DNA of 13,082 nucleotides from NCBI GenBank assembly GCA_029858305.1, contig JAOUFI010000059.1:1-13082 (forward strand). The letters are read 5' to 3'. Position 1 is the first letter of the stretch; each line of letters starts with the position of its first letter. Source of the stretch: Candidatus Thorarchaeota archaeon. GTDB lineage: Archaea; Asgardarchaeota; Thorarchaeia; Thorarchaeales; Thorarchaeaceae. The notes beneath the pieces were generated by a model. It was not told the origin of the DNA. It ran no database searches and saw only the letters and a list, made by a program, of their open reading frames with translations. Positions 1-13,082 of the stretch are shown piece after piece. Both the position numbers and the translations under genes were made by a program.

Positions 1-47
1 CAGAAGGAGTTCCTATCCAAATTCTCAGAGGTTTTCAGCTAGAATGA
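1..47 (+). CDS. 3' end of a gene entering the window; resembles the C-terminus of coenzyme F420-0:L-glutamate ligase (CofE) family proteins
   Basis: Frame from position 3 reads EGVPIQILRGFQLE-stop (TGA 45-47), similar to the E-x-x-P-h-x-h-h-R-G motif near the end of CofE proteins. It overlaps the stop of the convergent gene. Only 14 codons are visible. Confidence 0.45.
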   Translation, partial: EGVPIQILRGFQLE

Positions 48-608
48 GAGTGGTTTGCAGAGACATGCTCTCATCTTAAGCTGAGGAAATGATTGTGTAT
101 TTGTTGGTTGTAGCACCCATGCTGTATCGGCACCTCGTCCTGTTCCTGCAATACACACCACGTCACGATCTGTTGGAACGAGACCTGCATCTGCAGCCAT
201 CATTGCAATCTCTGCGCACACTTTAGTGCCTTGACCAAACGTTCGAAGAGCCACTGCTATGATTTCCGTTGATTGCCATCCCCCGAGTTGAACTCGAATT
301 CCTCGTGCAACGCCAGCGAATGCATGAGTAGAGGTAAGAATTTGAGCCCCCTCATCATACAATTTCTCTCTTTTCTCTTGACTTAATTCATTCTCATTTG
401 GTTTAACAAATCCAGTCTGGTGAGTAACAATAATGACAGTCTTATCCTTAAATTTCCTCGCCGCAGCTAATCCTGTTGTTCCCTCGGTTGTTGCTACGAT
501 AATATGTTCAATCGATTTATTTGATTCAAGAAAGTTTCGGACAATTTCTAGGACCTTGTCAGTATGTTCTTGAGATGACTCTTCAAAATAGAAGGTTTCC
601 ATTTTCAT
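39..608 (-). CDS. Stand-alone pyruvate kinase C-terminal (alpha/beta) domain protein, conserved archaeal/bacterial family
   Basis: Motifs IIVATTEGTTG, VTHQTGF, LRTFGQGTKVCAEIAMMAADAG and IAGTGRGADTA are typical of this family. Confidence 0.85.
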   Translation of the reverse strand: MKMETFYFEESSQEHTDKVLEIVRNFLESNKSIEHIIVATTEGTTGLAAARKFKDKTVIIVTHQTGFVKPNENELSQEKREKLYDEGAQILTSTHAFAGVARGIRVQLGGWQSTEIIAVALRTFGQGTKVCAEIAMMAADAGLVPTDRDVVCIAGTGRGADTAWVLQPTNTQSFPQLKMRACLCKPLSF

Positions 609-647
609 AATGTAGTTATTGTTAACTCTCCTACTTGAGACTTCCTT

Positions 648-1094
648 CTAGGACTCACCAATCTGTTTTGCTCGAACGAACCACTCTATGACTGCAAAAG
701 CCATCAGAACTATTACTGCAAAGTAGAAATCTACGGCACCATTGGTTATTGTAGAAACAACCCATGCTGCTAATACTGCGACAACAAACGCTGCGACCAG
801 ACGAATCACATAATATTGGAAACGGTCATTATTTGTTGATTGCTCAGATTCTACGATTTGCTCTAATTCATACTCCTCTGCAATATCCTCCGGTGTACCG
901 ACCCCATTAAGTACATCCTGAATTAGACTTACCTGACTTTCTGTTGGATTATTCCTTATTTTTTCTGTTAAAGCTTCATAGATATGAGATCTAAGATCAG
1001 CAATTAGATCTTCAGCGGCAAAGCTATCTGGAAGAAGCCGAGATGTCTTCTTGATATAATCTTCAATTATTCTCTCAGTTTCACTATCAATCAT
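648..1094 (-). CDS. HAAS/DUF1700-like signalling domain protein with two C-terminal TM helices (PadR partner)
   Basis: IEDYI...DLIADLRSHIYEAL...VLNGVGTPEDIAEEY matches the HAAS pattern (E/D-L-x-x-H-I...G-x-P-x-x-I-A), and the C-terminus has two hydrophobic segments. Start moved to ATG 1094 (MIDSE), which has GGAGG upstream and overlaps the padR stop. Confidence 0.75.
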   Translation of the reverse strand: MIDSETERIIEDYIKKTSRLLPDSFAAEDLIADLRSHIYEALTEKIRNNPTESQVSLIQDVLNGVGTPEDIAEEYELEQIVESEQSTNNDRFQYYVIRLVAAFVVAVLAAWVVSTITNGAVDFYFAVIVLMAFAVIEWFVRAKQIGES

Positions 1095-1452
1095 TTCCCA
1101 GAACCTCCAGCTTTTCAAATACATTACCTACAAGTACAGTGAGCTGTCTGTAGACACGGTCTCCTTCTCCAGTCAAGACGTAGACTTTTCTACTTGGTCC
1201 CGAGTCCGACTTCTCATCATATACATTGAGAAGTCTTTCCTTTCTGAGTCGATGAAGAATCGGGTATAGTGTTCCTTCTTTAACCTGTAGAAGTCCGTCT
1301 GTTCGTTGTTCCAACTCACGAGCAATACCATATCCATGAATTCCTGATTCATGACGTTTCACTATAGCAAGTACTGCGTATTGAAGAACACCTCTTCTAA
1401 ATTCTACCTTCCAAGTTTCCTCAAAACTGGGTCCCTTTTGCAATAGAACCAA
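1087..1452 (-). CDS. PadR-family winged-helix transcriptional regulator
   Basis: RRGVLQYAVLAIV, HGYGIARELE, EGTLYPILHRL and RKVYVLTGEG are canonical PadR motifs. The TTG start is uncertain (1452 or 1443). Confidence 0.92.
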   Translation of the reverse strand: MVLLQKGPSFEETWKVEFRRGVLQYAVLAIVKRHESGIHGYGIARELEQRTDGLLQVKEGTLYPILHRLRKERLLNVYDEKSDSGPSRKVYVLTGEGDRVYRQLTVLVGNVFEKLEVLGND

Positions 1453-1506
1453 TCCTCTCAGGTGTTCTGAAACAGGTTTACGCAGGTGTCCTTAAGGTTG
1501 TCTATC

Positions 1507-2877
1507 TTAGACAAGGTCTGCATCATGTCGTCTACCTTGAATCAGGGACCTGAACTCTCTCCAGATAGTAGATGAATATTGTCTTGGCTCCCTGATAAGC
1601 AGATAGAAGAATGATGCTACAAAACGTAGGATTCCACTCAGGATGAGCATCAAGAATACTGCGAGGTATTCACTACTGAAAACAACCAACAGCAGCTGAC
1701 CCAAGAGACCTGCCAATAATGAGCCCAAGAGATAAACAAGCCCTGTGAATGTGTTGAATACAGCAATATGTGAACCTCTCTCTGTAGCTGGGGCAATATC
1801 ATAGATATAGGCAGTAATTGCATTAAATGCTGAAGCTGTACAAAATCCTGCTAGAATATTCGCAGCATACACAATCCAGACATTCCACGCAAAAGCATAC
1901 ATTATGGGGACTAGGAACAAGAATCCTCTTCCCAATAGAATCAATGGCTTTCTACCAACTCGGTCGCTTAGTCGCCCGAAAGGTATGGTGAAAATTACTG
2001 TTGAGGTTGTCATGAGAGCAGAGGCTATTGCAATTTCAAGGATTGAATTTCCCAGCCACTCTCTCTGAACAACAATAAAATATGGCCATGCCATTGACAT
2101 AGCGAAGGAGAAGAACACTGCAACAAAACTGAATCTTCTGAAATCACCAGGGCGTGATAGAAGTTTAAGCATTGGGGGAAATCTTTTTGGCCCATCATGT
2201 TTCAGAGGTTTTTCCTTGATTGATAGAGAGAGTAGTGAGGATAATATTCCTATAACCGCAGTAAGGAAGAATGGGATATAGTATGTTTCTCTCCAAGACT
2301 CTACTGATGGAAAGATGACAAGTCCAAAATCGCCAAAGGATGATCTCAATAAAGGTAGAATACCAGGAATCCCGGCCAAAATGCCAGAGATCATCGTTGC
2401 CACAAGCGAAGCAACATTAGTAATCATTCCTAATTTTCCAAGTTGGTCTCCTCTATTCTTCTCTCCCATGAGACCTCCTATTAATGATAACCAAGTAGGA
2501 ATCTGTATACTGAATAGAATAGACTGGATTGCATACATAAGTATCATATCGATTGGAGTTGCAGCCCATAGGAACAGGTAAACAAAAGTGAGCCCCATCA
2601 TCGTCCCAAAAGCAACAAATGCCTTTGCATGACCTGCTCTGTCTGATGCTGCACCCCAGGCGGGCTGAAGAACCGTTGGAGCAACATTTCCTACACTTCT
2701 GAATGCGCCAAGCTGAGTAAAGTTTAATGTTCCATAGAGGTTTGTCTGCATATCCACAAGATATGTTTGAAGGAAAGGAGCATGAAGACCCAAGGCAAAT
2801 TGAGTCAAAGCGCCAACAACGAATGCCTTCGCTGGTAGTTTTGGTTCTTCAATGGTGACAAAGGTCTCTTCAGTCAA
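1507..2877 (-). CDS. MFS transporter
   Basis: About 12 hydrophobic segments, with MFS motif A in both halves (WGAASDRAGH; FGRLSDRVGRKP). TTG start. Confidence 0.9.
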   Translation of the reverse strand: MTEETFVTIEEPKLPAKAFVVGALTQFALGLHAPFLQTYLVDMQTNLYGTLNFTQLGAFRSVGNVAPTVLQPAWGAASDRAGHAKAFVAFGTMMGLTFVYLFLWAATPIDMILMYAIQSILFSIQIPTWLSLIGGLMGEKNRGDQLGKLGMITNVASLVATMISGILAGIPGILPLLRSSFGDFGLVIFPSVESWRETYYIPFFLTAVIGILSSLLSLSIKEKPLKHDGPKRFPPMLKLLSRPGDFRRFSFVAVFFSFAMSMAWPYFIVVQREWLGNSILEIAIASALMTTSTVIFTIPFGRLSDRVGRKPLILLGRGFLFLVPIMYAFAWNVWIVYAANILAGFCTASAFNAITAYIYDIAPATERGSHIAVFNTFTGLVYLLGSLLAGLLGQLLLVVFSSEYLAVFLMLILSGILRFVASFFYLLIREPRQYSSTIWREFRSLIQGRRHDADLV

Positions 2878-3017
2878 TGCGAATTCGCCTTAGGCAGTGG
2901 CGGCAATCAGTTCCCCTAATAACTGTAATTCTGCATACCACTCACTCATATGGTCGTAGACCGTCAAACTATTATTCACCCAGCTTTGAGCTAGAGCAAG
3001 GTTGTGAAAGCAGAAAT

Positions 3018-4127
3018 ATGCTCGATGAATCGATATATCGATCGAGAATTATTCAAATTCAGAAGCAATTGAATGATTCGGATACGGACTTCATGCTTTT
3101 GACTCCTGAGGCTAATTTTCAATATCTTACAGGATATCCCCATCAAATGAGAGAACGACTTGTTGCCCTTCTCCTTAGAAAGGGAGCCGAACCGGAGCTC
3201 ATTGTTCCCGCATTCGAGGAATCTAATCATTCTTCTCAAACGTGGATAAAGGAAATCATCCCATGGGAGGAGGATGAAAGTCCATATGGCATAATTGCTG
3301 AATTGGTTGGAAAACGCGATGATGGTCCCACAGCTCTTCTAGATGAGAGTCTCCCCCTTGGCATCTATTGGTTATTAGAGAAAGCGTTTGGCAAGTTCAA
3401 GAAGGTGCTTTCAATTACCCCTACTATGAAATCTCTCCGAATTATAAAATCAGAGCATGAAGTTGCTTTATTGAGGAAAGCAGGACACATCATTGACGAT
3501 GCGGTGATGAAAGCTTTCAGAGCATCGCAGATTGGGATGACTGAACTACAGGTCCGACAGATAGTACAAGAAGAGGTCATTCGTCAAGGTGCGACTCCTT
3601 CATTTGCTGCAATTCAATTTGGTAAGAATAGTGCCTTTCCCCACGCTGATTCAAGCAATAGGGAGCTTAGAAAGGGTGATGTTATCTTAATGGACTGTGG
3701 ATGTTCACTGGATGGCTATAACACTGATATGACCCGGGTTGGTGTTCTGGGTGAGCCATCAGAGGATATTGAGTTAGTATATTCTATTGTAAGAAAGGCT
3801 CAAGAAACTGCAATAGAGAAAATCTCACGTGGCGTTGTTTGCGGGAATGCAGATGGAATTGCTCGACGTGTTATTGAGGAGGCTGGTTATGGAGACTACT
3901 TTACTCATCGCTTGGGCCATGGAATCGGTCTTGAGGTGCATGAACCACCTTATCTTGTCCGCGGAAATGCAGAAGAACTAGGTGTTGGAATGTGTCATAG
4001 TATTGAACCTGGCGTCTATTTAGAAGGGCAGTTTGGAATTCGGATTGAAGATCTAGTCTACATTCGTGAGGATGGCCCTGAGGTCATAACCTATTCCCCA
4101 AAGGACCTGATACTATTGAATCCGTAG
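3018..4127 (+). CDS. pepQ: M24B family Xaa-Pro dipeptidase/aminopeptidase P (prolidase-like)
   Basis: Creatinase-like N-domain (NFQYLTGY, ERLVALLL) and metal-ligand motifs MDCG, YNTDMTR, HRLGHGIGLEVHE, SIEPG and GIRIED. Start placed at ATG 3018 (MLDES), preceded by AGGTTGTGA. The ORF-track extension to 2877 would fill the divergent promoter region. Confidence 0.9.
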   Translation: MLDESIYRSRIIQIQKQLNDSDTDFMLLTPEANFQYLTGYPHQMRERLVALLLRKGAEPELIVPAFEESNHSSQTWIKEIIPWEEDESPYGIIAELVGKRDDGPTALLDESLPLGIYWLLEKAFGKFKKVLSITPTMKSLRIIKSEHEVALLRKAGHIIDDAVMKAFRASQIGMTELQVRQIVQEEVIRQGATPSFAAIQFGKNSAFPHADSSNRELRKGDVILMDCGCSLDGYNTDMTRVGVLGEPSEDIELVYSIVRKAQETAIEKISRGVVCGNADGIARRVIEEAGYGDYFTHRLGHGIGLEVHEPPYLVRGNAEELGVGMCHSIEPGVYLEGQFGIRIEDLVYIREDGPEVITYSPKDLILLNP

Positions 4128-4133
4128 AGATCA

Positions 4134-4745
4134 CTAAGTATCTTTACCATTTTCTGTTGTCGGATTTTCATCAGATTTCTCTGATTTACTAGTATCCTGT
4201 TCTTTCTTTTCATCCTCTGACCGTTTCTTCATAGCCTCTGCAGATTGTCGGATAAGTTCGGTCATGATGATAGAATAGATTGCCGGAAGTGTTGCGTCTG
4301 TTTCAGTCCTCTCTTTATACTCCTGTTCTGCAAGATTCCTTGCTGCTTGCAGAACTTCCTTGCTGATTTCTCCATGCCCTACTCCGGGACAATCCTTACT
4401 ACTAAGGTAGTATTTTTCTCCATTAAACTCAAGCGGATATGTTCTGCAAGAAATTGGTCTTGAATACCTAATTTCGCAACCATTTGCTTTCTCGTTGTAG
4501 AAGATGCAACAAGTACTCTCTGGCTTTTCTTCTAGAGGTTTTCGAGCCATTTCTAAAACGAGTCCGTCTTCCTCGCTTGTTGGCATCTTCATTGACACAC
4601 CTGGTATGATATTCATAAGATAGCCTTGAGCAGTCCATCTACCCAGGTCTCCAAGTGTAACAGTCACTTGAGGTCTGATATGGCAGGCTTTCGTTGTACA
4701 CTTTTGTTCTAGACATTTGAAGTTGTACTTTGATTTCTCAGACAT
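4134..4745 (-). CDS. YkgJ-like (CxxCxxCC family) Cys-cluster protein, putative Zn/Fe-S binding, with acidic low-complexity tail
   Basis: FKC-x4-C-x4-C, CCIFY, CEIRYSRPISCRTYP and DCPGVG. The likely start is ATG 4745 (MSEK), preceded by GGTGA-N5. Confidence 0.8.
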   Translation of the reverse strand: MSEKSKYNFKCLEQKCTTKACHIRPQVTVTLGDLGRWTAQGYLMNIIPGVSMKMPTSEEDGLVLEMARKPLEEKPESTCCIFYNEKANGCEIRYSRPISCRTYPLEFNGEKYYLSSKDCPGVGHGEISKEVLQAARNLAEQEYKERTETDATLPAIYSIIMTELIRQSAEAMKKRSEDEKKEQDTSKSEKSDENPTTENGKDT

Positions 4746-4919
4746 ATACTTCACCGGAGCGTAGTGATTGAGGCGTTCTGTTTATGGACAGACTTTAACG
4801 TTTTCGAAACAGCTAAAACCTCCCTTTTTACTTACACAAGTCGGCAGGTTTTTGTATAGCATTAAAACGTTTGACCCTCGCCTCAAACATTATCCCTGTT
4901 TTGACTCGGAGCATTCAAA

Positions 4920-7736
4920 ATGGCACAGAAATCTTGGTACGATAATGATGTCGAGCATGTCCTGAAACAACTTGATACTTCTGTTGATGGTCTGTCTCAA
5001 GAAGAAGCTGAAATCAGATTGCAGCAATATGGACCAAACGAGCTTTTGGAAACTGGTGGAATAAGTCCTCTGAGGATGTTCATACAGCAATTCATGGATC
5101 CTATGGTCATGATTCTAATGATTGCAATTTTAATATCGTTATTTACGTCGATATTAGGTGTGGAAGAAGAGAGTGGAATTATCGATGCCATTGTCATCTC
5201 TGCTATTGTGATTTTCAATGCAGTCTTCGGTTTCGTCCAAGAATACAAGTCTGAGCAGGCCCTAGAGGCTCTAAAACAGATGGCGGCTCCAAAAGCACGA
5301 GTCAAGAGGGATGGTCTGTGGACTATAATTGATTCTCGAGATATTGTCCCTGGTGATCTGATAGGGCTCGAATCGGGTGATCTTGTAGCTGCTGATGGTC
5401 GCGTTATCTATGCAGTTGGCTTTTCCGCAGACGAAGCCCCTCTGACAGGTGAATCAGTTTCTGTTCGTAAGGTAGTTGATCCCATTCACTTGCATTCACC
5501 TGTCGTCGGTGATATGAAGAACATGGTCTTTCAGGGCACATCAATAACAGCTGGTAAAGGAAATGCAATTGTTACATCTACAGGGATGAAAACTCAATTT
5601 GGTAAGATTGCGGAGCTTGTCCAAGAAAGCGACAAGTCGATGACACCTCTCCAGGAAGACCTTGAAGATCTAGGTAAGAAACTTGGCCTTCTTATCATTG
5701 CGCTTTGCGCGATTGTTCTTGCTGCAGAAATAATCAAGAATGTTTCTGATAGCCTTGTAGAAGAATTGTTGGCAGCGATTGCACTAGCAGTGTCTGCCAT
5801 CCCAGAAGGTCTTCCTGCTGTTGTTACCATTACACTTGCTATTGGAGTACAACGTATGGTTGCACGAAACGCTATTGTTCGTCGATTGCCATCTGTGGAA
5901 ACACTTGGCTCGACGACTGTTATTTGTTCAGACAAGACTGGAACCATCACCAAGAATGAGATGACTGCAACCACAATTTTCACGAATGGGATGACAATAT
6001 CAGTAAGTGGTGTTGGATACAATAGGGATGGAGCTTTCACTCGCGCAAGCGAATCCTTTGACATTCTTTCAGACCTGCATGCAAGAAAACTCTTAGAGAT
6101 TGGTCAACTTTGCAGTAACTCACTACTTCAAGACGAACCAACAAAGAAGTCTGATTGGACCATTGTTGGAGATCCGACAGAGGGTGCACTACTCGTACTA
6201 GCTGAAAAGGCAGGCCTTACATACAAAGAAACAATGGCAAGATACACAGAAGTATCTGAAATCTCCTTCGACTCTGCACGAAAGCGGATGACATCAATCA
6301 ACAAAGAAACAGATGGACAACTCGTTGCCTGTACAAAGGGTGCTCCTGAGGTTCTTCTACCCCTCTGCACGAGTATCTATGAAAATGGGGAGATTATACC
6401 CCTCACACAAAAGATGCATGATTCAATTATTGGAATAAGTGCTGGGTTTGCTGAGAATGCACTCCGTGTTCTGGCTTTTGCATATAGACCATTAGAGTCT
6501 GAGATACCTGATTGGGAACCTGAGAAAGTTGAGCGTGACCTCATTTTTGTAGGAATTGTAGGAATGATGGATCCTCCTAGGGCAGAGGTTAATGATGCTA
6601 TCAAGCTCTGCAAGAAAGCAGGCATTCGCCCCATCATGATAACAGGAGATCACAAGCTGACTGCTCGCGCAATTGCTGTGGAAGTTGGTCTGATTGATAG
6701 GGATGGAGAGGTCCTTAGTGGTGTGGATCTCGATCAATTATCTCCCAAGGAATTTAATGAGACTGTCATGAGGTGCAATGTATATGCTCGAGTAGCACCC
6801 GAACACAAGCTAAGAATTGTGACAGCTCTAAAAGCGAATAATGAAATCACTGCCATGACGGGGGATGGCGTGAATGATGCTCCTGCAATAAAAGCATCAA
6901 ATGTTGGTATCTCTATGGGTATCAGAGGATCTGACGTGACAAAAGAGGCGTCGGATGTTATTCTAACAGATGATAATTTTGCAACAATTGTATCAGCTAT
7001 TGAAAAAGGGCGTGAGATCTATTCAAACATTCGCAAGTTTGTTCGTTTCTTGCTCTCAGCCAACTTTGATGAAGTGTTCCTCATATTCACTATAATCATG
7101 TTAGGTTTGCCCTTACCAATTACAGCAATACAGATCCTATGGTTGAACCTGGCTACAGATGGTTTCCCAGCACTAGCTCTAGGTGTCGACCCACCTGAGC
7201 CTGGAGTCATGAATCGTCCCCCACGGAAACCAGGCGCAAAGATGATGGACCGTGGAATGGGCTCATTTATTGTAGTTGCAGGCTTCGTCGCCTTTCTGGC
7301 ATCAGTGACCGTTTTCATGTCAACTCTGACCATCTATGGTGGATGGATTCCTGGCATAACTGGTCCTGTTGTGGATTGGCACACAGATATCTCAAGTGTA
7401 ACAGGAGTTGGTTGGGAGTATATCCTGACCCATGCAAGATCCGCCGTGTTTGTGAGTGTAGTTACATTCGAGCTTCTGTTTGTGTGGAACTGTAGGGACG
7501 AGTACCATCCTGTATGGAAGACTCAGGTACGTGGATCCAAGGTGCTGATGGGCGCTGTGGCTCTATCAGTTGTTTTGACTTTATTGACTATCTATTTTCC
7601 ACCCATGGCAGCTCTCTTCGAAACTGTACCACTAAACAGTATTGATTGGGCGATAGTGATATTGACAAGTGTCCCAGCCTTGTTGATTCCACCCCACATA
7701 ATCTTTGGCCATCACAAAGAGAAACAATTTGACTAG
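4920..7736 (+). CDS. P-type IIA cation (probably Ca2+)-transporting ATPase
   Basis: LTGES (A domain), AIPEGLP (M4), CSDKTGT phosphorylation site, KGAPE, DPPR, MITGD, TGDGVNDAPA, and QILWLNLATDG (M6). Confidence 0.95.
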   Translation: MAQKSWYDNDVEHVLKQLDTSVDGLSQEEAEIRLQQYGPNELLETGGISPLRMFIQQFMDPMVMILMIAILISLFTSILGVEEESGIIDAIVISAIVIFNAVFGFVQEYKSEQALEALKQMAAPKARVKRDGLWTIIDSRDIVPGDLIGLESGDLVAADGRVIYAVGFSADEAPLTGESVSVRKVVDPIHLHSPVVGDMKNMVFQGTSITAGKGNAIVTSTGMKTQFGKIAELVQESDKSMTPLQEDLEDLGKKLGLLIIALCAIVLAAEIIKNVSDSLVEELLAAIALAVSAIPEGLPAVVTITLAIGVQRMVARNAIVRRLPSVETLGSTTVICSDKTGTITKNEMTATTIFTNGMTISVSGVGYNRDGAFTRASESFDILSDLHARKLLEIGQLCSNSLLQDEPTKKSDWTIVGDPTEGALLVLAEKAGLTYKETMARYTEVSEISFDSARKRMTSINKETDGQLVACTKGAPEVLLPLCTSIYENGEIIPLTQKMHDSIIGISAGFAENALRVLAFAYRPLESEIPDWEPEKVERDLIFVGIVGMMDPPRAEVNDAIKLCKKAGIRPIMITGDHKLTARAIAVEVGLIDRDGEVLSGVDLDQLSPKEFNETVMRCNVYARVAPEHKLRIVTALKANNEITAMTGDGVNDAPAIKASNVGISMGIRGSDVTKEASDVILTDDNFATIVSAIEKGREIYSNIRKFVRFLLSANFDEVFLIFTIIMLGLPLPITAIQILWLNLATDGFPALALGVDPPEPGVMNRPPRKPGAKMMDRGMGSFIVVAGFVAFLASVTVFMSTLTIYGGWIPGITGPVVDWHTDISSVTGVGWEYILTHARSAVFVSVVTFELLFVWNCRDEYHPVWKTQVRGSKVLMGAVALSVVLTLLTIYFPPMAALFETVPLNSIDWAIVILTSVPALLIPPHIIFGHHKEKQFD

Positions 7737-8575
7737 GTTGGAAGCCTCTTCTCCAACCAAGATGCCATATCACTTAGGACTAGGTCTTGCTCCGGTTCAA
7801 CATGCAGTTCATGATAGAGTCCTTCATAGAGCTTCCATGTTTTGTCTTTTGAGCTCAGTCTATCAAAAAACTCCTTGCCTCTGGCAGGACTGACTGCGGT
7901 ATCTAGACCTGCCTGTTGAAGCAGCACGGGTAACTGAATGTATGAAGCTGATTTGAAAGCGTCGTCTGAGGATTTTAGTGCCTGAATGCCAAATCGTGGT
8001 GTCACCATCTCAAATCTCAAAGGATCTGTTTCGTGCTCCTTTATGATACTGGGACTTCGGGTTAGCTCGTCATATTTGAGATCACTGTTAACATACTGTT
8101 TCACGTTTAGTAGGGATAGGAGATGACCTGCAGCCTTTTTACCCCAACTGATATCAAGTGTCTGACTTACTGCAGGACACTGAAGGATGAGCCCATCAAT
8201 ATCAAGTGGATATTTTATGATATAGCGAATTGCGCTTATACCCCCTAACGATGACCCGAAAAGGAATGTTATCTTGTTGAGATATCTATCCTTAACCTGC
8301 ATAATCAAATTCTGGATATCTTCAACATACTCATCAAAATTCATAACATGACCCTTCAAACCGGAATAATGTCCAAATCCACGCATGTCTGGAATAAAAA
8401 CAGCTATTCCGCGTTCAGCAAAGTATTGACCTACATTTTTGAAATCGCCAGCATGGCTACCAAGACCATGGAGTGCAATAAGTAGAGCTCTCGGATTATC
8501 GTTATCAGGACGCCAAAGGGCCATGAACATATGCGTTCCATCATACCCGATGTAGTTGGTTTCCTCGTATTGCAT
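7733..8575 (-). CDS. Alpha/beta hydrolase, lysophospholipase/monoacylglycerol lipase family
   Basis: HGLGSH oxyanion motif, DMRGFGH, nucleophile GSSLGG, acid in AGLD and His in LYHELH. The likely start is ATG 8575 (MQYEE) after GGTG. Overlaps the ATPase stop convergently. Confidence 0.9.
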   Translation of the reverse strand: MQYEETNYIGYDGTHMFMALWRPDNDNPRALLIALHGLGSHAGDFKNVGQYFAERGIAVFIPDMRGFGHYSGLKGHVMNFDEYVEDIQNLIMQVKDRYLNKITFLFGSSLGGISAIRYIIKYPLDIDGLILQCPAVSQTLDISWGKKAAGHLLSLLNVKQYVNSDLKYDELTRSPSIIKEHETDPLRFEMVTPRFGIQALKSSDDAFKSASYIQLPVLLQQAGLDTAVSPARGKEFFDRLSSKDKTWKLYEGLYHELHVEPEQDLVLSDMASWLEKRLPT

Positions 8576-8632
8576 ATACACCACTGCATGCTTTGGATAT
8601 GTTCTGTTATTTATCTTAATGTAAAAGAGAAG

Positions 8633-8655
8633 AAGATGACCCTTTGGGTCATCTT
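8633..8655 (-). terminator. Perfect 10-bp hairpin followed (on - strand) by a pyrimidine/T-rich tract; probable terminator of the hbd gene
   Basis: AAGATGACCC-TTT-GGGTCATCTT lies 10 nt past the hbd stop, and the - strand continues CTTCTCTTTT. Confidence 0.65.
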
Positions 8656-8665
8656 ATCAATTAAA

Positions 8666-9550
8666 CTAGAATCTCATTGGTTTTGGCTCTTCGCCTGAAT
8701 AATCATAAAAACCTCTTCCAGACTTCCGACCAAGCCAACCAGCTCTGACCATCTTCCGTAGTAAAGCTGGCGCTCTATATTTGCTGTCCTTGAACTCATC
8801 TACAAAGTAATCGCTTATGTAAAGCGCTGTATCAAGACCAACAAAGTCAAGTAATGTTAGTGGGCCCATAGGCCAGTTTAGACCCAATTTAATAGCTAGG
8901 TCCATGTCTTCTACAGTAGCCACACCTTCTTGAATAGCAAAAACCGCTTCAATGAGAGCTGGTACTAGTAATCTATTGACGGCAAAGCCTGGTGCCTCAT
9001 TGACTATTACCGTCTTCTTCCCAACTTTGTGTGAAACATCCTCGATAGCTTTTACTGTTGCATCGGCTGTAGCTTGACCCCTGATTATCTCGACAAGACC
9101 CATGACAGGCACAGGATTGAAAAAGTGCATACCAATGAATTTGTCAGGTCTCTTCGTGACCGCGGCCATCTGCGTGATACTTATACTGGACGTATTGGAG
9201 GCAAGAATCGTATGTTTCGGGGCTGCTCCATCGACTTCCTTCCAAGTATCAAGTTTGAGTTTGACAATCTCGGGAATTGCTTCTATTACTAAGTCTGCAT
9301 CTTTTACAGCATCCTTCAGGTCAAGAACCCCTTTGATTCTTCCCAAGATTGCGTCTGCCTCATCCTGAGTCATCTTGCCCTTCGATACACCTCGGTCAAG
9401 ATTCTTCTTGATGGTCGTTATTCCATTATCCACGAATTTCTGCTCAATATCGCGCATTTTGACCTCATAACCAGCTTGAGCGCAGACATGGGCTATCCCA
9501 TTGCCCATCTGTCCTGCACCCAACACTGCAATCTTCTTGATCTCCATCAT
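8666..9550 (-). CDS. hbd: 3-hydroxybutyryl-CoA / 3-hydroxyacyl-CoA dehydrogenase
   Basis: Rossmann GAGQMGNGIA, VIEAIPE, LASNTSS, GMHFFNPVPVM, PGFAVNR, MGPLTLLDFVGLD and LGRKSGRGFY. GAGGCGG RBS upstream. Confidence 0.95.
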   Translation of the reverse strand: MMEIKKIAVLGAGQMGNGIAHVCAQAGYEVKMRDIEQKFVDNGITTIKKNLDRGVSKGKMTQDEADAILGRIKGVLDLKDAVKDADLVIEAIPEIVKLKLDTWKEVDGAAPKHTILASNTSSISITQMAAVTKRPDKFIGMHFFNPVPVMGLVEIIRGQATADATVKAIEDVSHKVGKKTVIVNEAPGFAVNRLLVPALIEAVFAIQEGVATVEDMDLAIKLGLNWPMGPLTLLDFVGLDTALYISDYFVDEFKDSKYRAPALLRKMVRAGWLGRKSGRGFYDYSGEEPKPMRF

Positions 9551-9674
9551 ATACCGCCTCGTAATCTCTGTGAGAGATGTTCTTCGCTCTTTATAGCTAC
9601 TAAATATGTCTGTCTGTTGATGAGGGACTCTATCGATGTTTGTCTAAATGAAACAGTAATGCTTCTCAATGCAC

Positions 9675-10304
9675 CTATAGTCTCTCATATCGAAATGTAC
9701 AGCGTTTGCCTCCTGATGCTATGGTTTCATATCGAGTGAATTTTATCCATTTTACCAAATAGTTGGCTAGCATGTCATCATAATCACACAGAATCGGTCC
9801 TAGCTCAGGTCGACCCGCTTCTCGAAGGATATCGAAGTAGAGACATTTCTGAATATCAAATCCAAAGCATTGGTCATCTTGTTGAATTTCGAGGACTTTG
9901 AAGAACTCATTATCATAATTTGCTCTGTTTCCCTTTCTTATCCACTCTATAAAAGCTCCCCAAGGATCGACACTCTCCTCGAGATGCCGAACCTCACTTT
10001 CGAAGAATGTCTGTAGCATTTCTTTATAGATACTAATGACAGACACTTTAAGTTGGGAGTATGATGCCTTTATCTCCCTTAAAGTATCATCAAGAGCCAT
10101 TACAAAGAGTGAATTAATACCATGCCTTTTTGCTAGGTGGATCGGCATCATGTGTTTGTAGTTATTATAATGTATCCTGAATTGCCTATCGTACAAACTA
10201 TGGAGTGCATCCCCTTTCTGCTCACCAAATAGCCTATGAAGCTCCCTACCTGTTAAAAGTGAAAAGTAATCTATGAGCTGTTGTATTTGATTGTCCTCAG
10301 TCAT
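9675..10304 (-). CDS. L-2-amino-thiazoline-4-carboxylic acid hydrolase-like family protein (function uncertain; possibly ligand-binding)
   Basis: The C-terminal FDIQKCLYFDIL...PELGPILCDYD...FTRYETIASGGKRCTFRY is the family signature with three Cys. Start moved to ATG 10304 (MTEDN), with GAGG upstream. Confidence 0.75.
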   Translation of the reverse strand: MTEDNQIQQLIDYFSLLTGRELHRLFGEQKGDALHSLYDRQFRIHYNNYKHMMPIHLAKRHGINSLFVMALDDTLREIKASYSQLKVSVISIYKEMLQTFFESEVRHLEESVDPWGAFIEWIRKGNRANYDNEFFKVLEIQQDDQCFGFDIQKCLYFDILREAGRPELGPILCDYDDMLANYLVKWIKFTRYETIASGGKRCTFRYERL

Positions 10305-10340
10305 GGTTCCTCGCCCTCTTGTTGGCACTTTTAGGAGTTT

Positions 10341-10425
10341 GGGATGGTCACAAATTGTGACTCCCTTGTGTGACCACAAGAAGTGGCTTTGCTATATATA
10401 CTGTTTCTAACTGTTACTTCTTGTG
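10341..10425. promoter_or_regulatory. Divergent promoter region: TATA box (TATATATA 10393-10400) framed by a 10-bp inverted repeat, plus nested palindromes (putative operators)
   Basis: CACAAGAAGT (10375-10384) and ACTTCTTGTG (10416-10425) are exact reverse complements. GTCACAA-A-TTGTGAC lies at 10347-10361 and CTTGTG-TGAC-CACAAG at 10365-10380. The TATA box ends 32 nt before ATG 10433. Confidence 0.55.
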
Positions 10426-10432
10426 AAAAATC

Positions 10433-10537
10433 ATGGCTCTAACAACTAACAACGAAACTTTTGCGAAGAATAACGCAATCCGAAGTGTTCCCCGCACTCA
10501 AGCTGTTGCTTATGCTTTCATTACACGTGTGAGGTAA
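10433..10537 (+). CDS. Micropeptide A (34 aa) MALTTNNETFAKNNAIRSVPRTQAVAYAFITRVR
   Basis: Hand translation. Paralogous to micropeptide C (same length, MALxTN start, R-x-x-A-h-A-Y-A-aromatic motif, ends AGG-TAA). Positioned for near-leaderless translation from the upstream TATA box. Confidence 0.7.
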   Translation: MALTTNNETFAKNNAIRSVPRTQAVAYAFITRVR

Positions 10538-10543
10538 TCTCCC

Positions 10544-10672
10544 ATGACACATACTGAGAATCATATCTCTGTGTTCTATTCAGATCCCACTTCAATAGCC
10601 AAGTGGTCACCGAGTGACCATGGATATGGTCATTCTTGCTCAGAAGTAGTAAAACCTGTGACCATCATATGA
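10544..10672 (+). CDS. Small ORF B (42 aa) MTHTENHISVFYSDPTSIAKWSPSDHGYGHSCSEVVKPVTII
   Basis: ATG lies 6 nt after the stop of A, with GAGGT (10531-10535) 8 nt upstream. The ORF fills the gap to C but overlaps strong palindromes, so coding status is uncertain. Confidence 0.4.
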   Translation: MTHTENHISVFYSDPTSIAKWSPSDHGYGHSCSEVVKPVTII

Positions 10673-10688
10673 TAGGTTGTGAATCATC

Positions 10689-10793
10689 ATGGCTTTAGAT
10701 ACTAACTCACATAATCGGAACAGGAAATACGAATCTCCACGTAATATTCAACGTGCAAAAGCATTAGCCTATGCTTATGCGTACAAGAGGTAA
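10689..10793 (+). CDS. Micropeptide C (34 aa) MALDTNSHNRNRKYESPRNIQRAKALAYAYAYKR
   Basis: Hand translation. Preceded by AGGTTGTGAA, the same element found upstream of the peptidase ATG 3018. Paralogous to A and D. Confidence 0.72.
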   Translation: MALDTNSHNRNRKYESPRNIQRAKALAYAYAYKR

Positions 10794-10798
10794 TTCAG

Positions 10799-10879
10799 AT
10801 GAATACTGACCAGAGGACAAAGAGACCTACAACCATCACCTCCACCCGTGCTATTGCAGAGGCTTACTTCAGAAGGTAG
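10799..10879 (+). CDS. Micropeptide D (26 aa) MNTDQRTKRPTTITSTRAIAEAYFRR
   Basis: ATG lies 5 nt after the stop of C, with GAGGT upstream. Shares A-h-A-x-A-aromatic...R-stop with A and C and ends AGG-TAG. Confidence 0.65.
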   Translation: MNTDQRTKRPTTITSTRAIAEAYFRR

Positions 10880-10885
10880 TTGATT

Positions 10886-11011
10886 ATGATTTTCGACAAT
10901 CTCTATCCCTTTCGAGAGGATTACTGCGTCGTACAAAATGTTTATAATGTAAACGGTTTATATTACAAATGGTTTGTACCACAAACTTATATGTGTTTGA
11001 CTGAATCATAA
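10886..11011 (+). CDS. Small ORF E (41 aa) MIFDNLYPFREDYCVVQNVYNVNGLYYKWFVPQTYMCLTES
   Basis: ATG lies 6 nt after the stop of D, with AAGGT upstream. Aromatic-rich with two Cys, and overlaps an AT-rich hairpin. Confidence 0.4.
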   Translation: MIFDNLYPFREDYCVVQNVYNVNGLYYKWFVPQTYMCLTES

Positions 11012-11026
11012 CAAAGGTGAATGATA

Positions 11027-11137
11027 ATGACTCTACGACTGACTTCAGACAAGCCCTGCTTGACATGGGAGAATAGGTCGATAAAGGTCCAGTCGTTTGG
11101 GGTATTATGTTATGGGAGTCAGACAATATCACAATGA
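11027..11137 (+). CDS. Small ORF F (36 aa) MTLRLTSDKPCLTWENRSIKVQSFGVLCYGSQTISQ
   Basis: Strong archaeal-type RBS AGGTGA (11015-11020) 6 nt upstream of ATG 11027 (an in-frame ATG also lies at 11021). Confidence 0.4.
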   Translation: MTLRLTSDKPCLTWENRSIKVQSFGVLCYGSQTISQ

Positions 11138-11185
11138 GCCATGATGTTTCAACTTACGCTTACACCGGATAAATCTCCTATCTCC

Positions 11186-11221
11186 GCAGCGGTCCCGGTA
11201 GTGTGATCACGGGGCCGCTGC
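11186..11221 (+). other. GC-rich 12-bp stem-loop (RNA structural element, processing/stability or termination signal)
   Basis: GCAGCGGTCCCG-GTAGTGTGATCA-CGGGGCCGCTGC forms 11 Watson-Crick pairs plus one G-U pair on the + strand. 26 of 36 nt are G/C in otherwise AT-rich surroundings. Confidence 0.65.
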
Positions 11222-11244
11222 TCCAAAATGGAGTGCTGATAGAA

Positions 11245-11361
11245 ATGAATCCTATTACAAACAACCTATGGCTTTATTCCATATCTCAGTCAAATAGACC
11301 TGAGAACTCTATCCCTCATTGTTCACTTCAGTGTCTTTTTCAGAGGAGTGATAAAAGATGA
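11245..11361 (+). CDS. Small ORF I (38 aa) MNPITNNLWLYSISQSNRPENSIPHCSLQCLFQRSDKR overlapping the MFS start
   Basis: GGAGTG (11230-11235) lies 9 nt upstream of the ATG, and its TGA overlaps the MFS ATG in an ATGA arrangement. Confidence 0.3.
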   Translation: MNPITNNLWLYSISQSNRPENSIPHCSLQCLFQRSDKR

Positions 11362-12878
11362 GTCGAATGAAATCTTTTCTTGGCTTACCAGAGGCAACTG
11401 AGAAGGTTCTTAGATTAGCCAAGATTATGGCTGTACTAGGTCCACTTGCCAACTTTACCTTTGTACTATCTACAACATTCTATGTAATCTTTGTAGCTGA
11501 GGCTTTGGGTGGCGGCCCTGGCATGTATTTGCAGGGCATGGGCCTTGTTGGCACGCTTGTTGTCATTCAAATGGTTGTTCAGACGATTCTTGATTACCCA
11601 ACTGGAGCAATCGGAGACTGGATCGGACAAAGATGGGTAGTATCTTCAGCAGCACTATGTTTCGCTCTGTCTTTCTACATGCTCTCCTTTGTCACGACGA
11701 CCACCCCATTCTGGTTTCTGGTAATCATCTATGTATTAGCAGGACTTGCTCAGAGTCAGCAGAGCGGTGCATGGGGCGCTTGGTTTGATAATAACTATCG
11801 AGTTGCAATGCCCGGGGATTCGGATCGAAAGCAGTACGGTGTTTTCTGGGGGCGTATGGGCATGATGATGCAAGTTGTTGCAACAGCTTCCCTCATTCCT
11901 GGGAGTGTGCTTGCTGTTGTCCTATCACGACCTTGGGTCTTTCAGTTTCAAGCTGTCTTAGCAGTCGTACTGGCCTTGATCTCCTTCAGATTAGTCCGGG
12001 ACTTTCCAGAGGTAGAGGCACAGCGTGAAAAACGCCCTGAAATGGGACAGTATATTTCAATATTGAAGGGAGGAGTAGGTTTTCTCTTCAAATATCCCTT
12101 TGTACGGTACATAACCATAGGCGGAATGATTGCCACTAGTAGTATCATGGTATGGGGTAATCTGATTCTCTTTCCGATGTATTATTTGTACCTCATAACT
12201 GACGTTGCAGTGGCGGGATTTAGAACCCTCCTTTTCATGCCTGGGATTTTTGCTCAGGAGCGATCCGGTATCTGGTCACGCAGATTCGAACCTAAGAAAT
12301 GGATTCCACGGTTTAGATTGATCCAGACATGTGGCTTTGTCTTTTTCTGGGTATTTGCAACTGTCATGTTTCTATTCCCTCCTGTTGCTAGTGAATCTGC
12401 GAATATCATCTCAATCTACTGGCCATTCACCGGAGTTGAGCTATTAACTCTCCCACTAGAGAATCTTCTACCAATTGGACTTATCTTTACAACATTTGTT
12501 GCCACGTCATTCTTCGGGGGCTTTGCCGACATACTAACACAGAGAGTGTTATTGGATGTTATTCCAAACCGAATTCGTAACAGCATGTACTCACTACTTC
12601 CGACAATTGCAACCGTATTTGCTATTCCTCAAATTGCTCTCTTTGGCTGGTTGATTACTCTTATTGGATTTCCTCTAACTCTGGCAAGTTGTGGGGTAGT
12701 ATCTCTCATTGGGGTAGTCCTAATCGTTCACGGTTTTAGACATGAGGTTCCCAAAGCTGAAGAAGCCACCTGGTCATCCCCAGCTCCAGAAGTGCAACCT
12801 AACGACGTAATCGCTGAGTCTGAAGTTGTTGCTGAACTCCCAGTATTGACCATCATTGACGAACCTACTGATGAGTGA
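11358..12878 (+). CDS. MFS transporter with acidic C-terminal tail
   Basis: About 12 TM segments, DYPTGAIGDWIGQR (motif A variant), QQSGAWGAWFDN and IPNRIRNSMYSL. RBS GAGGAGTGA at 11343-11351. Confidence 0.9.
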   Translation: MSRMKSFLGLPEATEKVLRLAKIMAVLGPLANFTFVLSTTFYVIFVAEALGGGPGMYLQGMGLVGTLVVIQMVVQTILDYPTGAIGDWIGQRWVVSSAALCFALSFYMLSFVTTTTPFWFLVIIYVLAGLAQSQQSGAWGAWFDNNYRVAMPGDSDRKQYGVFWGRMGMMMQVVATASLIPGSVLAVVLSRPWVFQFQAVLAVVLALISFRLVRDFPEVEAQREKRPEMGQYISILKGGVGFLFKYPFVRYITIGGMIATSSIMVWGNLILFPMYYLYLITDVAVAGFRTLLFMPGIFAQERSGIWSRRFEPKKWIPRFRLIQTCGFVFFWVFATVMFLFPPVASESANIISIYWPFTGVELLTLPLENLLPIGLIFTTFVATSFFGGFADILTQRVLLDVIPNRIRNSMYSLLPTIATVFAIPQIALFGWLITLIGFPLTLASCGVVSLIGVVLIVHGFRHEVPKAEEATWSSPAPEVQPNDVIAESEVVAELPVLTIIDEPTDE

Positions 12879-12897
12879 GTGATAATAAAGAATACCT

Positions 12898-12940
12898 GAA
12901 GTCATCATTCTGATGGCTTCTTCTTTATTCCTTCTATTTC
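12898..12940 (+). terminator. Hairpin plus pyrimidine/T-rich tract; probable terminator of the MFS gene
   Basis: GAAGTCATCA-TTC-TGATGGCTTC (10 bp, one G-U pair) is followed by TTCTTTATTCCTTCTATTTC, about 20 nt after the stop. Confidence 0.65.
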
Positions 12941-12996
12941 AGTCACAAGAGGAAAGTTAATACATGCCTGCGTGAAACCTGCCTCGGTGTTTTGGT

Positions 12997-13082
12997 TTGA
13001 GTGATAGACCTGGATTTCTTATGGTAACCCATTCAGGGTCGGGCCTTCAAACAATGGACTATGAAAGAAAAATGGTTCTTGA
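12997..13082 (+). CDS. Possible 5' end of a gene running out of the window (MSDRPGFLMVTHSGSGLQTMDYERKMVL...)
   Basis: Frame is open to the window end from TTG 12997, with GGTG 7 nt upstream and an AT-rich GAAAGTTAATA further upstream. Too short to identify. Confidence 0.3.
   Translation, partial: MSDRPGFLMVTHSGSGLQTMDYERKMVL

Follow-up and report, generated by a model that had tools for sequence, protein, structure and literature searches.

Tandemly encoded small basic proteins forming a hitherto undescribed family in one family of Thorarchaeota

Introduction

Contig JAOUFI010000059.1 of assembly GCA_029858305.1, from a Candidatus Thorarchaeota archaeon, carries between positions 10433 and 10879 three very short open reading frames (ORFs), pepA, pepC and pepD, and these raise the question of whether such sequences encode proteins at all and, if they do, how those proteins might act. 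The stretch analysed here, referred to as the window, comprises positions 1 to 13,082 of this contig, which is labelled C62 among the contigs of the 3.04 Mb genome. In a preliminary description made from the sequence alone, the encoded peptides A, C and D were held to be basic paralogues sharing a C-terminal motif conserved at the protein level; their coordinates, sequences and start contexts were all reproduced on re-reading. Asgard archaea have been studied mainly for their eukaryote-like proteins and, to our knowledge, their small-protein repertoire is essentially unannotated. The three peptide genes are as follows, with the expectation value (E) of each in the profile search described below.

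10433-10537, + strand: pepA, 34 aa, with the ...AYAFITRVR variant of the tail; E 7e-15; orthologues in 10 other species.
10689-10793, + strand: pepC, 34 aa, with the canonical ...ALAYAYAYKR tail; E 5.9e-15; orthologues in 10 species.
10799-10879, + strand: pepD, 26 aa, of the '...A-Y-F-R-R' subtype; E 5.9e-07.

Results

Definition of the family

Genome-wide, a regular expression describing the C-terminal motif matched 10 of the 142,207 stop-to-stop segments with a length of 12 aa or more; these 10 fall in four loci, on contigs C62, C50, C119 and C205. The profile constructed from these 10 sequences finds 14 members at six loci, adding those on C32 and C155, with E ranging from 1.8e-18 to 0.011; hence the three copies in the window are an undercount. 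The family consensus starts with M-A-L-[TA]-[TK]-N, continues through a variable basic linker and finishes with S-T-[DE]-A-[LIV]-[TA]-[YH]-A-Y-x-Y-R-R-stop. Peptide A carries a second form of the tail, ...A-Y-x-T-[VF]-[VK]-R, and the subtype to which peptide D belongs is also found immediately 5' of a gene for a DHA3-type transporter of the major facilitator superfamily (MFS) in loci resembling that on C119. When a degenerate 39-base DNA pattern encoding T-[DE]-A-x-x-Y-A-Y-x-[YF]-R-R-stop, estimated to contain around 42 bits of information, was compared with 596 Gb of sequence from 185,579 prokaryotic species genomes, 28 stretches matched, 21 of which are titled 'Candidatus Thorarchaeota archaeon' and seven 'uncultured archaeon'. 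The rarity of the regular expression, the 14-member profile and the outcome with the degenerate pattern together exclude a chance origin of the motif, and A, C and D genuinely belong to a family of basic proteins, around 30 residues long, that had not been described before. Their paralogy through duplication is likewise supported, with the start contexts of pepA and pepC being near-identical (TTGTGAA-N6-ATGGCT).

The loci fetched for comparison contained 137 members, 118 of them unique, 117 of which could be anchored on the motif. The 112 distinct peptides are 22-37 aa long (median 32), with a median net charge of +5, an isoelectric point (pI) of 10.3 and a grand average of hydropathy (GRAVY) of -0.7; A, T, R, K, Y, S and N are abundant in them. 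The division into a variable polar N-terminal part and a conserved C-terminal segment, proposed on the basis of the three peptides in the window, stands as regards the variability and basic character of the former and the conservation of the tail; what had been overlooked is that the N terminus is also conserved at its very start, 87 of the 112 distinct peptides beginning MAL. An AlphaFold2 model of peptide C, generated from a 37-row alignment, has helices at residues 7-13 and 17-33, the predicted local distance difference test (pLDDT) score being 87 over residues 21-30 and 78 over residues 31-34. In such a C-terminal helix S-T-[DE] would constitute the N-cap, and the two most conserved residues, arranged as Ala-x-x-x-Ala, would form a small-residue ridge with tyrosine flanks and an Arg-Arg end, a type of surface that may be expected to pack against another helix.

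Selection acts on the encoded protein

The central alanine of the motif is invariant in all 117 anchored members and is encoded by each of the four possible codons (GCT 60, GCA 36, GCC 12 and GCG 9), so the argument from synonymous codons, previously made for three sequences, holds at scale. Across the nine motif codons the entropy of the third position is 0.94-1.94 bits, while that of positions 1 and 2 of the invariant alanine is zero; at the preceding threonine, present in 114 of the 117, the values are 1.53 bits at the third position, 0.17 bit at the first and none at the second. The linker is kept among orthologues and differs between paralogues; for example, six of the 11 orthologues of C have the sequence ..N-x-K-Y-E-x-P-R-x-I-Q.. 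there. In the 112 distinct peptides the frame stays open for 22-37 aa, frame and length are preserved in the 118 unique genes, and the median dN/dS across 11 orthologous loci is 0.47 for pepA and 0.35 for pepC. Conservation therefore respects codon position rather than extending through the DNA irrespective of frame, and selection acts on the protein and not on a DNA repeat, as the preliminary description had supposed.

That these sequences represent a DNA repeat or a regulatory RNA element, within which the ORFs go untranslated, would be in keeping with the repetition of a promoter region of around 80 nt, at 81-82% identity, at the loci on C62, C50, C119 and C205, and with the RNA- or DNA-level constraints evident in the AGG-stop ending and the orfB region described below. 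However, substitutions that follow codon position, a frame and length kept in 118 unique genes, dN/dS values below 0.5 and the lack of any match to Rfam (window positions 9500-12000, E up to 1) leave this idea with hardly any credibility.

Distribution

The genomes searched were samples of their respective groups, many of them incomplete, and the failures to find the family apply to the genomes searched. All 24 other sampled genomes of the same genus contain profile matches, at 4-14 each. Far from being absent from related genomes, the motif occurs in 72 of the 85 genomes, and 14 of the 16 genera, of the GTDB family to which the organism belongs, with 1-14 matches per positive genome. No profile match was present in the single genome searched from the only other family of the order, nor in any of 224 genomes sampled evenly over 29 further families of the phylum; among the genomes searched, the family is restricted to one Thorarchaeota family. 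The gene order of every locus type is maintained between species, pointing to vertical inheritance rather than mobility.

Among 1.84 billion protein representatives the profile had 36 matches at E <= 1e-3, mostly 29-37 aa long, and five cluster representatives that were looked up are unnamed. Neither the A nor the C sequence of the window is held in a collection of 15 billion proteins, in which D was not looked up. Pfam, at E up to 10, gave no match for any of the 10 members compared with it, NCBIfam, at E up to 1, gave none for any of 37, and the ESM Atlas gave no usable match for the family. Four peptide motifs of the family had no match in the full-text literature, and publications on small proteins of Thorarchaeota or other Asgard archaea, on precursors of RiPPs (peptides made by the ribosome and modified after translation) and on metatranscriptomes do not describe the family at the abstract level, supplementary lists of small ORFs being outside the scope of this search. 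Mostly missed by gene callers, the family is yet found in most genomes of one Thorarchaeota family and is under purifying selection; whichever role it may have, these cells probably contain it as an abundant, lineage-defining component.

Operon structure and codon usage

In 38 of 40 internal cistrons, 4-8 nt separate the stop codon from the start codon that follows, and the last sense codon is AGG in 39 of these 40 and in 99 of all 117 anchored members. By comparison, AGG accounts for 13% of the arginine codons in 1,229 long ORFs of the genome and for five of the 50 in the genes for EF-1alpha, S7, L30e and L7Ae. Within the window, pepD starts 5 nt after the pepC stop codon, and the AGG codon that ends pepC occupies the Shine-Dalgarno position. 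Most peptides that are the last of their cluster also have an ATG or GTG within around 9 nt, this being the start of orfB after pepA, of a 35-aa ORF in C205-type loci and of an MFS gene in C119-type loci. The exceptions are the C50-type clusters, where a conserved hairpin and T-run follow the peptides, no cistron lies downstream and the last arginine codon is CGC or CGG. All three stop codons are used by the family, giving AGGTAA, AGGTAG and AGGTGA endings. Because these terminator-ended clusters retain the arginine in the form of CGC or CGG, the arginine itself is selected at the protein level, whereas the choice of AGG appears to be a signal in the RNA, the simplest role of which is as a Shine-Dalgarno site for the cistron that follows. 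The 'R-stop' ending, originally regarded as a protein motif, consequently survives in respect of the arginine, with AGG plus stop being in part a signal in the RNA. The possibility of AGG serving as a rare-codon stall signal was set aside in favour of this Shine-Dalgarno role, given the CGC or CGG codons of the terminator-ended clusters.

A further element precedes the first gene of the window cluster:

10422-10427, + strand: TGTGAA, 5 nt upstream of the pepA ATG, weakly Shine-Dalgarno-like, with a copy before pepC at 10678-10683.

This is the putative ribosome-binding site of pepA and pepC; related GGTGAA elements precede orfE (see below) and the peptides on C32 and C155.

The codon usage of the peptide genes resembles that of the genes for EF-1alpha and ribosomal proteins. 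The frequency of C-ending codons in the peptides, the four translation genes and the genome, respectively, is 0.65, 0.56 and 0.33 for Asn AAC, 0.61, 0.57 and 0.36 for Tyr TAC, and 0.68, 0.47 and 0.40 for Ile ATC; the corresponding figures are 0.79, 0.67 and 0.51 for Lys AAG, and 0.47, 0.53 and 0.33 for Ala GCT. Together with the consensus TATA boxes of their promoters, this suggests heavy translation of the peptide genes.

Locus types and the association with MFS genes

Clustering of 387 neighbouring ORFs from 53 loci distinguished several gene contexts, of which that in the window contains, in addition to the peptide genes, the following features.

9675-10304, - strand: ATC_hydrolase-like gene, divergent from the peptide genes; Pfam PF14196, E 1.2e-17.
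10544-10672, + strand: orfB, 42 aa, starting 6 nt after the pepA stop codon, its 3' half overlapping the GGTCAC/GTGACC repeats of P2.
10605-10676, + strand: P2, promoter/operator, with GGTCACCGAGTGACC at 10605-10619, a further TGGTCA, CTCAGAA, TGTGACCA and the TATA-like ATATGATA.
10971-10994, + strand: P3, promoter/operator, the palindrome GGTTTGT-ACC-ACAAAC then TTATATG, preceding orfE and the MFS gene.
11021-11137, + strand: orfE, 38 aa, of a second small-ORF family (..KPCLT.ENRS..VQSFG..) of 37-38 aa, with a GGTGAA-N-ATG start context.
11186-11221 (context 11160-11245), + strand: conserved RNA hairpin, within the MFS gene's 5' region, with a 13-bp stem and an invariant GUGUGAU loop core.
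11358-12878, + strand: MFS transporter gene, 506 aa; Pfam MFS_1, E 2.4e-18; downstream of the peptide cluster in orthologous loci of genera g1 and g29.

Loci of the window type, of which there are 11 in genus g1, have genes for an S33 hydrolase, a 3-hydroxyacyl-CoA dehydrogenase (HCDH) and the ATC-like protein, followed by pepA, orfB, P2, pepC, pepD, P3, in some cases orfE, the hairpin and the MFS gene; a shorter form, in which the ATC-like gene and the D-type peptide were not detected, occupies four loci of genus g29. The C119 type (six loci) consists of two peptides, in some cases orfB, P2 and orfE, a D-type peptide and the DHA3 MFS gene, which starts 4-6 nt after the D-type peptide in the six loci; three of these (L016, L022 and L023) are plain tricistrons of two peptides and the MFS gene with gaps of 4-5 nt. 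In the C205 type a desulfoferrodoxin gene lies upstream, and a convergent gene of 200 aa and a GNAT gene downstream; the C155 type is accompanied by a divergent helix-turn-helix (HTH)-like gene, a convergent methyltransferase gene and a TrmB-family gene. Upstream of C50-type clusters are the genes for EF-1alpha and a 139-aa zinc-ribbon-like protein, with the terminator following the peptides, which number three in this genome and two or three at the other five loci. Downstream of the three peptides on C50, on the opposite strand (L055, around 6376-6456, minus strand), a sequence resembles by eye the 3' part of a tRNA with a long variable arm and a CCA end; ARAGORN reported no tRNA in L055 5800-6800, and none is claimed here. 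In one additional locus type, not represented in this genome, the peptides lie between a 152-aa gene and a large upstream gene that, going by its first residues, looks like a family-X DNA polymerase.

The window MFS protein and the C119 DHA3 protein are non-homologous beyond the level of the superfamily (BLASTP E 0.18). The latter matches the DHA3 model TIGR00900 with an E of 2.3e-64 and a score of 218 bits, below the curated cut-off of 319.6, and matches the EntS and Mef models more weakly. There are 39 Pfam MFS_1 matches in the genome, several per gene, corresponding to an estimated 30 or so MFS genes; on a rough estimate, the finding of an MFS gene as the next co-directional gene at two of the six loci would be unlikely to arise by chance, with a probability of the order of 1e-3.

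How might the peptides act?

Our favoured explanation, to which we attach a rough probability of 0.45, is that the peptides are abundant small proteins that act in trans, docking through the C-terminal helix. Under this tentative scheme the helix would dock on a partner common to these cells, while the linker would give each paralogue its specificity; a transport-related partner or pathway is the leading guess, because of the recurrent links to MFS efflux genes, with a ribosomal or nucleic-acid partner the next. The genes themselves sit in short polycistrons whose members are coupled by the 4-8-nt gaps, the terminal AGG and stop codon of one apparently doubling as the Shine-Dalgarno site of its successor. 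Action in trans is preferred because some clusters, of the C50 type, end in a terminator with no downstream cistron, because the codon usage resembles that of highly expressed genes, and because the whole peptide is constrained, from the MAL start through the orthologue-specific linkers; the convergent genes faced by C155- and C205-type clusters are counted on the same side. Several small bacterial modulators of transporters, including AcrZ, MgtS, MntS and SgrT, are shorter than 50 aa, are co-regulated or co-transcribed with transporters and bind in trans. The Thorarchaeal peptides are similar to these in being small proteins encoded, at some loci, beside transporter genes, but most of the bacterial examples are hydrophobic transmembrane helices whereas the peptides described here are predicted to be soluble polycations.

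A number of observations weigh against this explanation. Among the sequencing runs holding the stretch are 24 of DNA or contigs and none of RNA, which are uninformative on expression. The AlphaFold2 model of peptide C is of moderate confidence (mean pLDDT 70, pTM 0.31), and the codon bias was measured on small samples, 14 short genes being compared with just four reference genes. At four of the six locus types in this genome there is no MFS gene nearby, and the two MFS-linked loci, sharing the modules orfB, P2 and orfE, are not fully independent. Furthermore, an arrest peptide acting in cis would account equally well for the tight coupling to what lies downstream, for the aromatic C terminus with its Arg-stop ending and for chains about as long as the exit tunnel of the ribosome. 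Prediction of a complex between the C119 DHA3 MFS protein (35-row alignment) and the D-type peptide encoded upstream of it (8-row alignment) scored 0.00 with the controls unfolded, and as such gives no answer and weighs neither way.

The main alternative, which acts in cis, is that the peptides are sensor or arrest leaders, the nascent chain of which, lying wholly within the exit tunnel, would stall the ribosome at the stop codon and thereby gate downstream genes such as those for MFS pumps, the trigger possibly being a small molecule or a ribosome-targeting compound. This analogy with known leaders, which we judge unlikely to hold, draws on the size of the peptides (22-37 aa), on their conserved aromatic C terminus and Arg-stop ending with all three stop codons in use, on the start codons so close to the end of internal and of most final cistrons, and on the tricistrons L016, L022 and L023, in which the peptides precede a Mef/EntS-like DHA3 transporter gene; bacterial mef-type and other efflux genes are indeed under leader-peptide control. 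A short ORF coupled upstream of another gene, the arrangement characteristic of leaders, is seen where the MFS gene follows the stop codon in C119-type loci and where orfB follows pepA, but not in C50-type clusters, whose terminator-like hairpin has nothing downstream to be gated. Nor would leader peptides be expected to have the codon usage of highly expressed genes. Also counted against this alternative are the 14 copies in one genome in tandems of two or three, the conservation of the N-terminal MAL and of the linker among orthologues, and the fact that the window MFS gene has its own promoter, P3, and 5' hairpin. We know of no archaeal precedent for control by nascent-peptide arrest. SpeFL (bioRxiv 10.1101/604074) is a 34-aa leader composed of an N-terminal sensor and an aromatic C-terminal effector; stalling occurs at the stop codon when Arg34 occupies the P site, any stop codon is accepted, and its partner in the operon is an antiporter. 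With leaders of the SpeFL/TnaC type the Thorarchaeal peptides share a length of around 24-34 aa, a polar basic N-terminal part, an aromatic C terminus with Arg and any stop codon, and coupling upstream of a transporter or enzyme gene at some loci; they differ in being archaeal rather than bacterial, in their 14 tandem-arranged copies, in the clusters without a downstream gene, in a codon usage resembling that of highly expressed genes and in having no sequence similarity, and stalling is hypothetical in their case. Slightly more doubtful again is the specific proposition that paralogue-specific linkers allow the coupled cistrons, including those for two unrelated MFS pumps, to be gated by different small molecules or ribosome-targeting compounds; if it is true, these would be the first archaeal nascent-peptide ribosome sensors, multiplied to more than a dozen copies.

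It is also conceivable that the peptides are exported products, either leaderless multi-peptide archaeocins resembling bacteriocins or precursors of a RiPP derived from the Tyr-rich C terminus, with the MFS protein providing export or immunity. The numerous dispersed copies, conserved at both ends and variable between them, are reminiscent of multi-precursor RiPP systems, and in two locus types MFS genes of the efflux type are found downstream. Paralogous genes arranged in tandem, encoding cationic products of around 30 aa that lack a signal or leader, are a feature of multi-peptide leaderless bacteriocins such as aureocin A70, garvicin KS and the cereucins, which (PMC6131525) are encoded by two to four such genes and have lengths of 27-34 aa, pI values of 10.3-11, charges of +2 to +5 and GRAVY values of 0.0 to +0.7. 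With their two or three genes per tandem, size and charge, the Thorarchaeal peptides agree in layout with this leaderless cationic class of around 27-44 aa. However, with a median GRAVY of -0.7 they are much more polar than those hydrophobic or amphiphilic peptides (around 0 to +0.7), and no homology to those bacteriocins was detected. The different locus types have in common no modifying enzyme, no immunity gene and no exporter of the ATP-binding cassette (ABC) kind, and no maturase common to these was present among the 387 ORFs of the 53 loci, enzymes elsewhere in the genome not having been searched; the neighbours are specific to each locus type, among them the HTH protein, methyltransferase, GNAT, desulfoferrodoxin, MFS and ATC-like proteins. 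The deep syntenic conservation of orthologues across a taxonomic family differs from the patchy occurrence of accessory genes, cysteine is present in just eight of the 112 peptides, and a polycation of 3-4 kDa would be an unlikely MFS substrate. Hence we consider export improbable.

Action in trans remains our preferred reading, and the possible roles for the family extend from transporter partner, through ribosome- or RNA-binding factor, to translational sensor. The peptides offer a clean test case, as synthetic versions of 26-34 residues are easily made.

Promoters and operators

The peptide operons appear to have strong TATA promoters and, on the basis of the DNA sequence, at least three types of palindromic operator. 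Two of these, P2 and P3, are listed above; the first lies upstream of pepA.

10347-10375, + strand: P1 operator, upstream of the TATA box, consisting of the palindrome GTCAC-N5-GTGAC (10347-10361) and a third half-site, GTGACC (10370-10375).
10393-10400, + strand: P1 TATA box, TATATATA, invariant in 11 orthologues and located 33 nt before the start codon of pepA.

The P1 operator is conserved at the 11 orthologous loci, and the same element precedes the peptide clusters on C50, C119 and C205. At these four loci it has the TGM core of the TrmB/TrmBL1 system, TCAC-N5-GTGA, with the same spacing and in the activating position upstream of the TATA box; the TrmBL1 motif is TATCAC-N5-GTGATA, and sites located upstream of the promoter activate (PMC4706686). 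The flanking bases of P1 are different, and its targets are micropeptides where those of TrmB are sugar-metabolism genes. A TrmB-family gene adjoins the C155 peptide locus, and P1 may be under the control of a regulator of the TrmB type. One more site of the P1 type is found at C101:38916 (+), where GTAAC-N5-GTGAC, a further TGTGAC and a TATATA box lie upstream of a gene for a 371-aa protein. It lies directly after a 112-aa gene, winged-helix-like by eye, which is a candidate for encoding the P1 regulator.

P2 is formed by GGTCAC/GTGACC repeats within orfB. It is present just once more in the genome, on C119, where it is followed by an orfE-like gene, the third peptide and the MFS gene. Three sites in the genome have the P3 palindrome, one of which is the promoter of the C155 peptide pair (C155:21712), nearly identical to that in the window over around 24 nt; this suggests that one regulator serves both, and it counts among the links between the peptides and MFS transporters. 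A divergent gene for a 253-aa HTH-like protein adjoins the C155 copy in 13 loci. Shared operators such as these define candidate regulons in uncultured archaea.

Neighbouring genes, small ORFs and a 5' hairpin

Further upstream in the window are the genes for HCDH, the S33 hydrolase and a P-type ATPase. The longest mechanically defined ORF of the ATC_hydrolase-like gene runs to a TTG at 10379, but conservation of the protein sets in at MTEDNQ..., with the ATG at 10304, which is the probable start and leaves a divergent promoter region of 128 nt containing the P1 operator. The gene gave a tblastn match in all 10 of the fetched orthologous loci from g1, one of these being truncated by the contig end, and no tblastn match in the four g29 loci. 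One protein sequence, P0023 (103 aa, from a single 524-bp public contig), consists of around 68 N-terminal residues of the ATC-like protein joined at 'MAL' to a peptide of the family. An inversion between the ATC-like gene and pepA was considered as its origin and set aside, the shared inverted repeat being just 8-11 nt (ATGGCTCT..) and the evidence one short contig; either an infrequent inversion or a chimera arising in assembly could account for it.

The small ORF orfB is predicted to be translationally coupled to pepA. A similar ORF of 38-43 aa (..SER..W..SDP..WSPSGH..) is kept in seven of the 11 window-type loci and three of the six C119-type loci. In the other four window-type loci the frame is broken or absent, while the P2 repeats are conserved regardless of frame; because of these losses, conservation at the DNA level is the stronger signal, and the region may combine overlapping coding and operator functions. 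The second small ORF, orfE, has a paralogue on the minus strand of C119, between P2 and the third peptide. The differences between its orthologues are at third codon positions, and it is absent from five of the 11 orthologous loci.

The RNA hairpin lies around 140 nt upstream of the MFS start codon and is preceded by the invariant sequence CTCCTATCTCC. It had no match in Rfam, and three orthologues have an extra inserted hairpin. In the alignment, 98.6% of cells are paired, five pairs have compensatory changes and the covariation score was reached by none of 500 shuffles; the hairpin is hence a candidate cis-regulatory element in the 5' untranslated region of the transporter gene.

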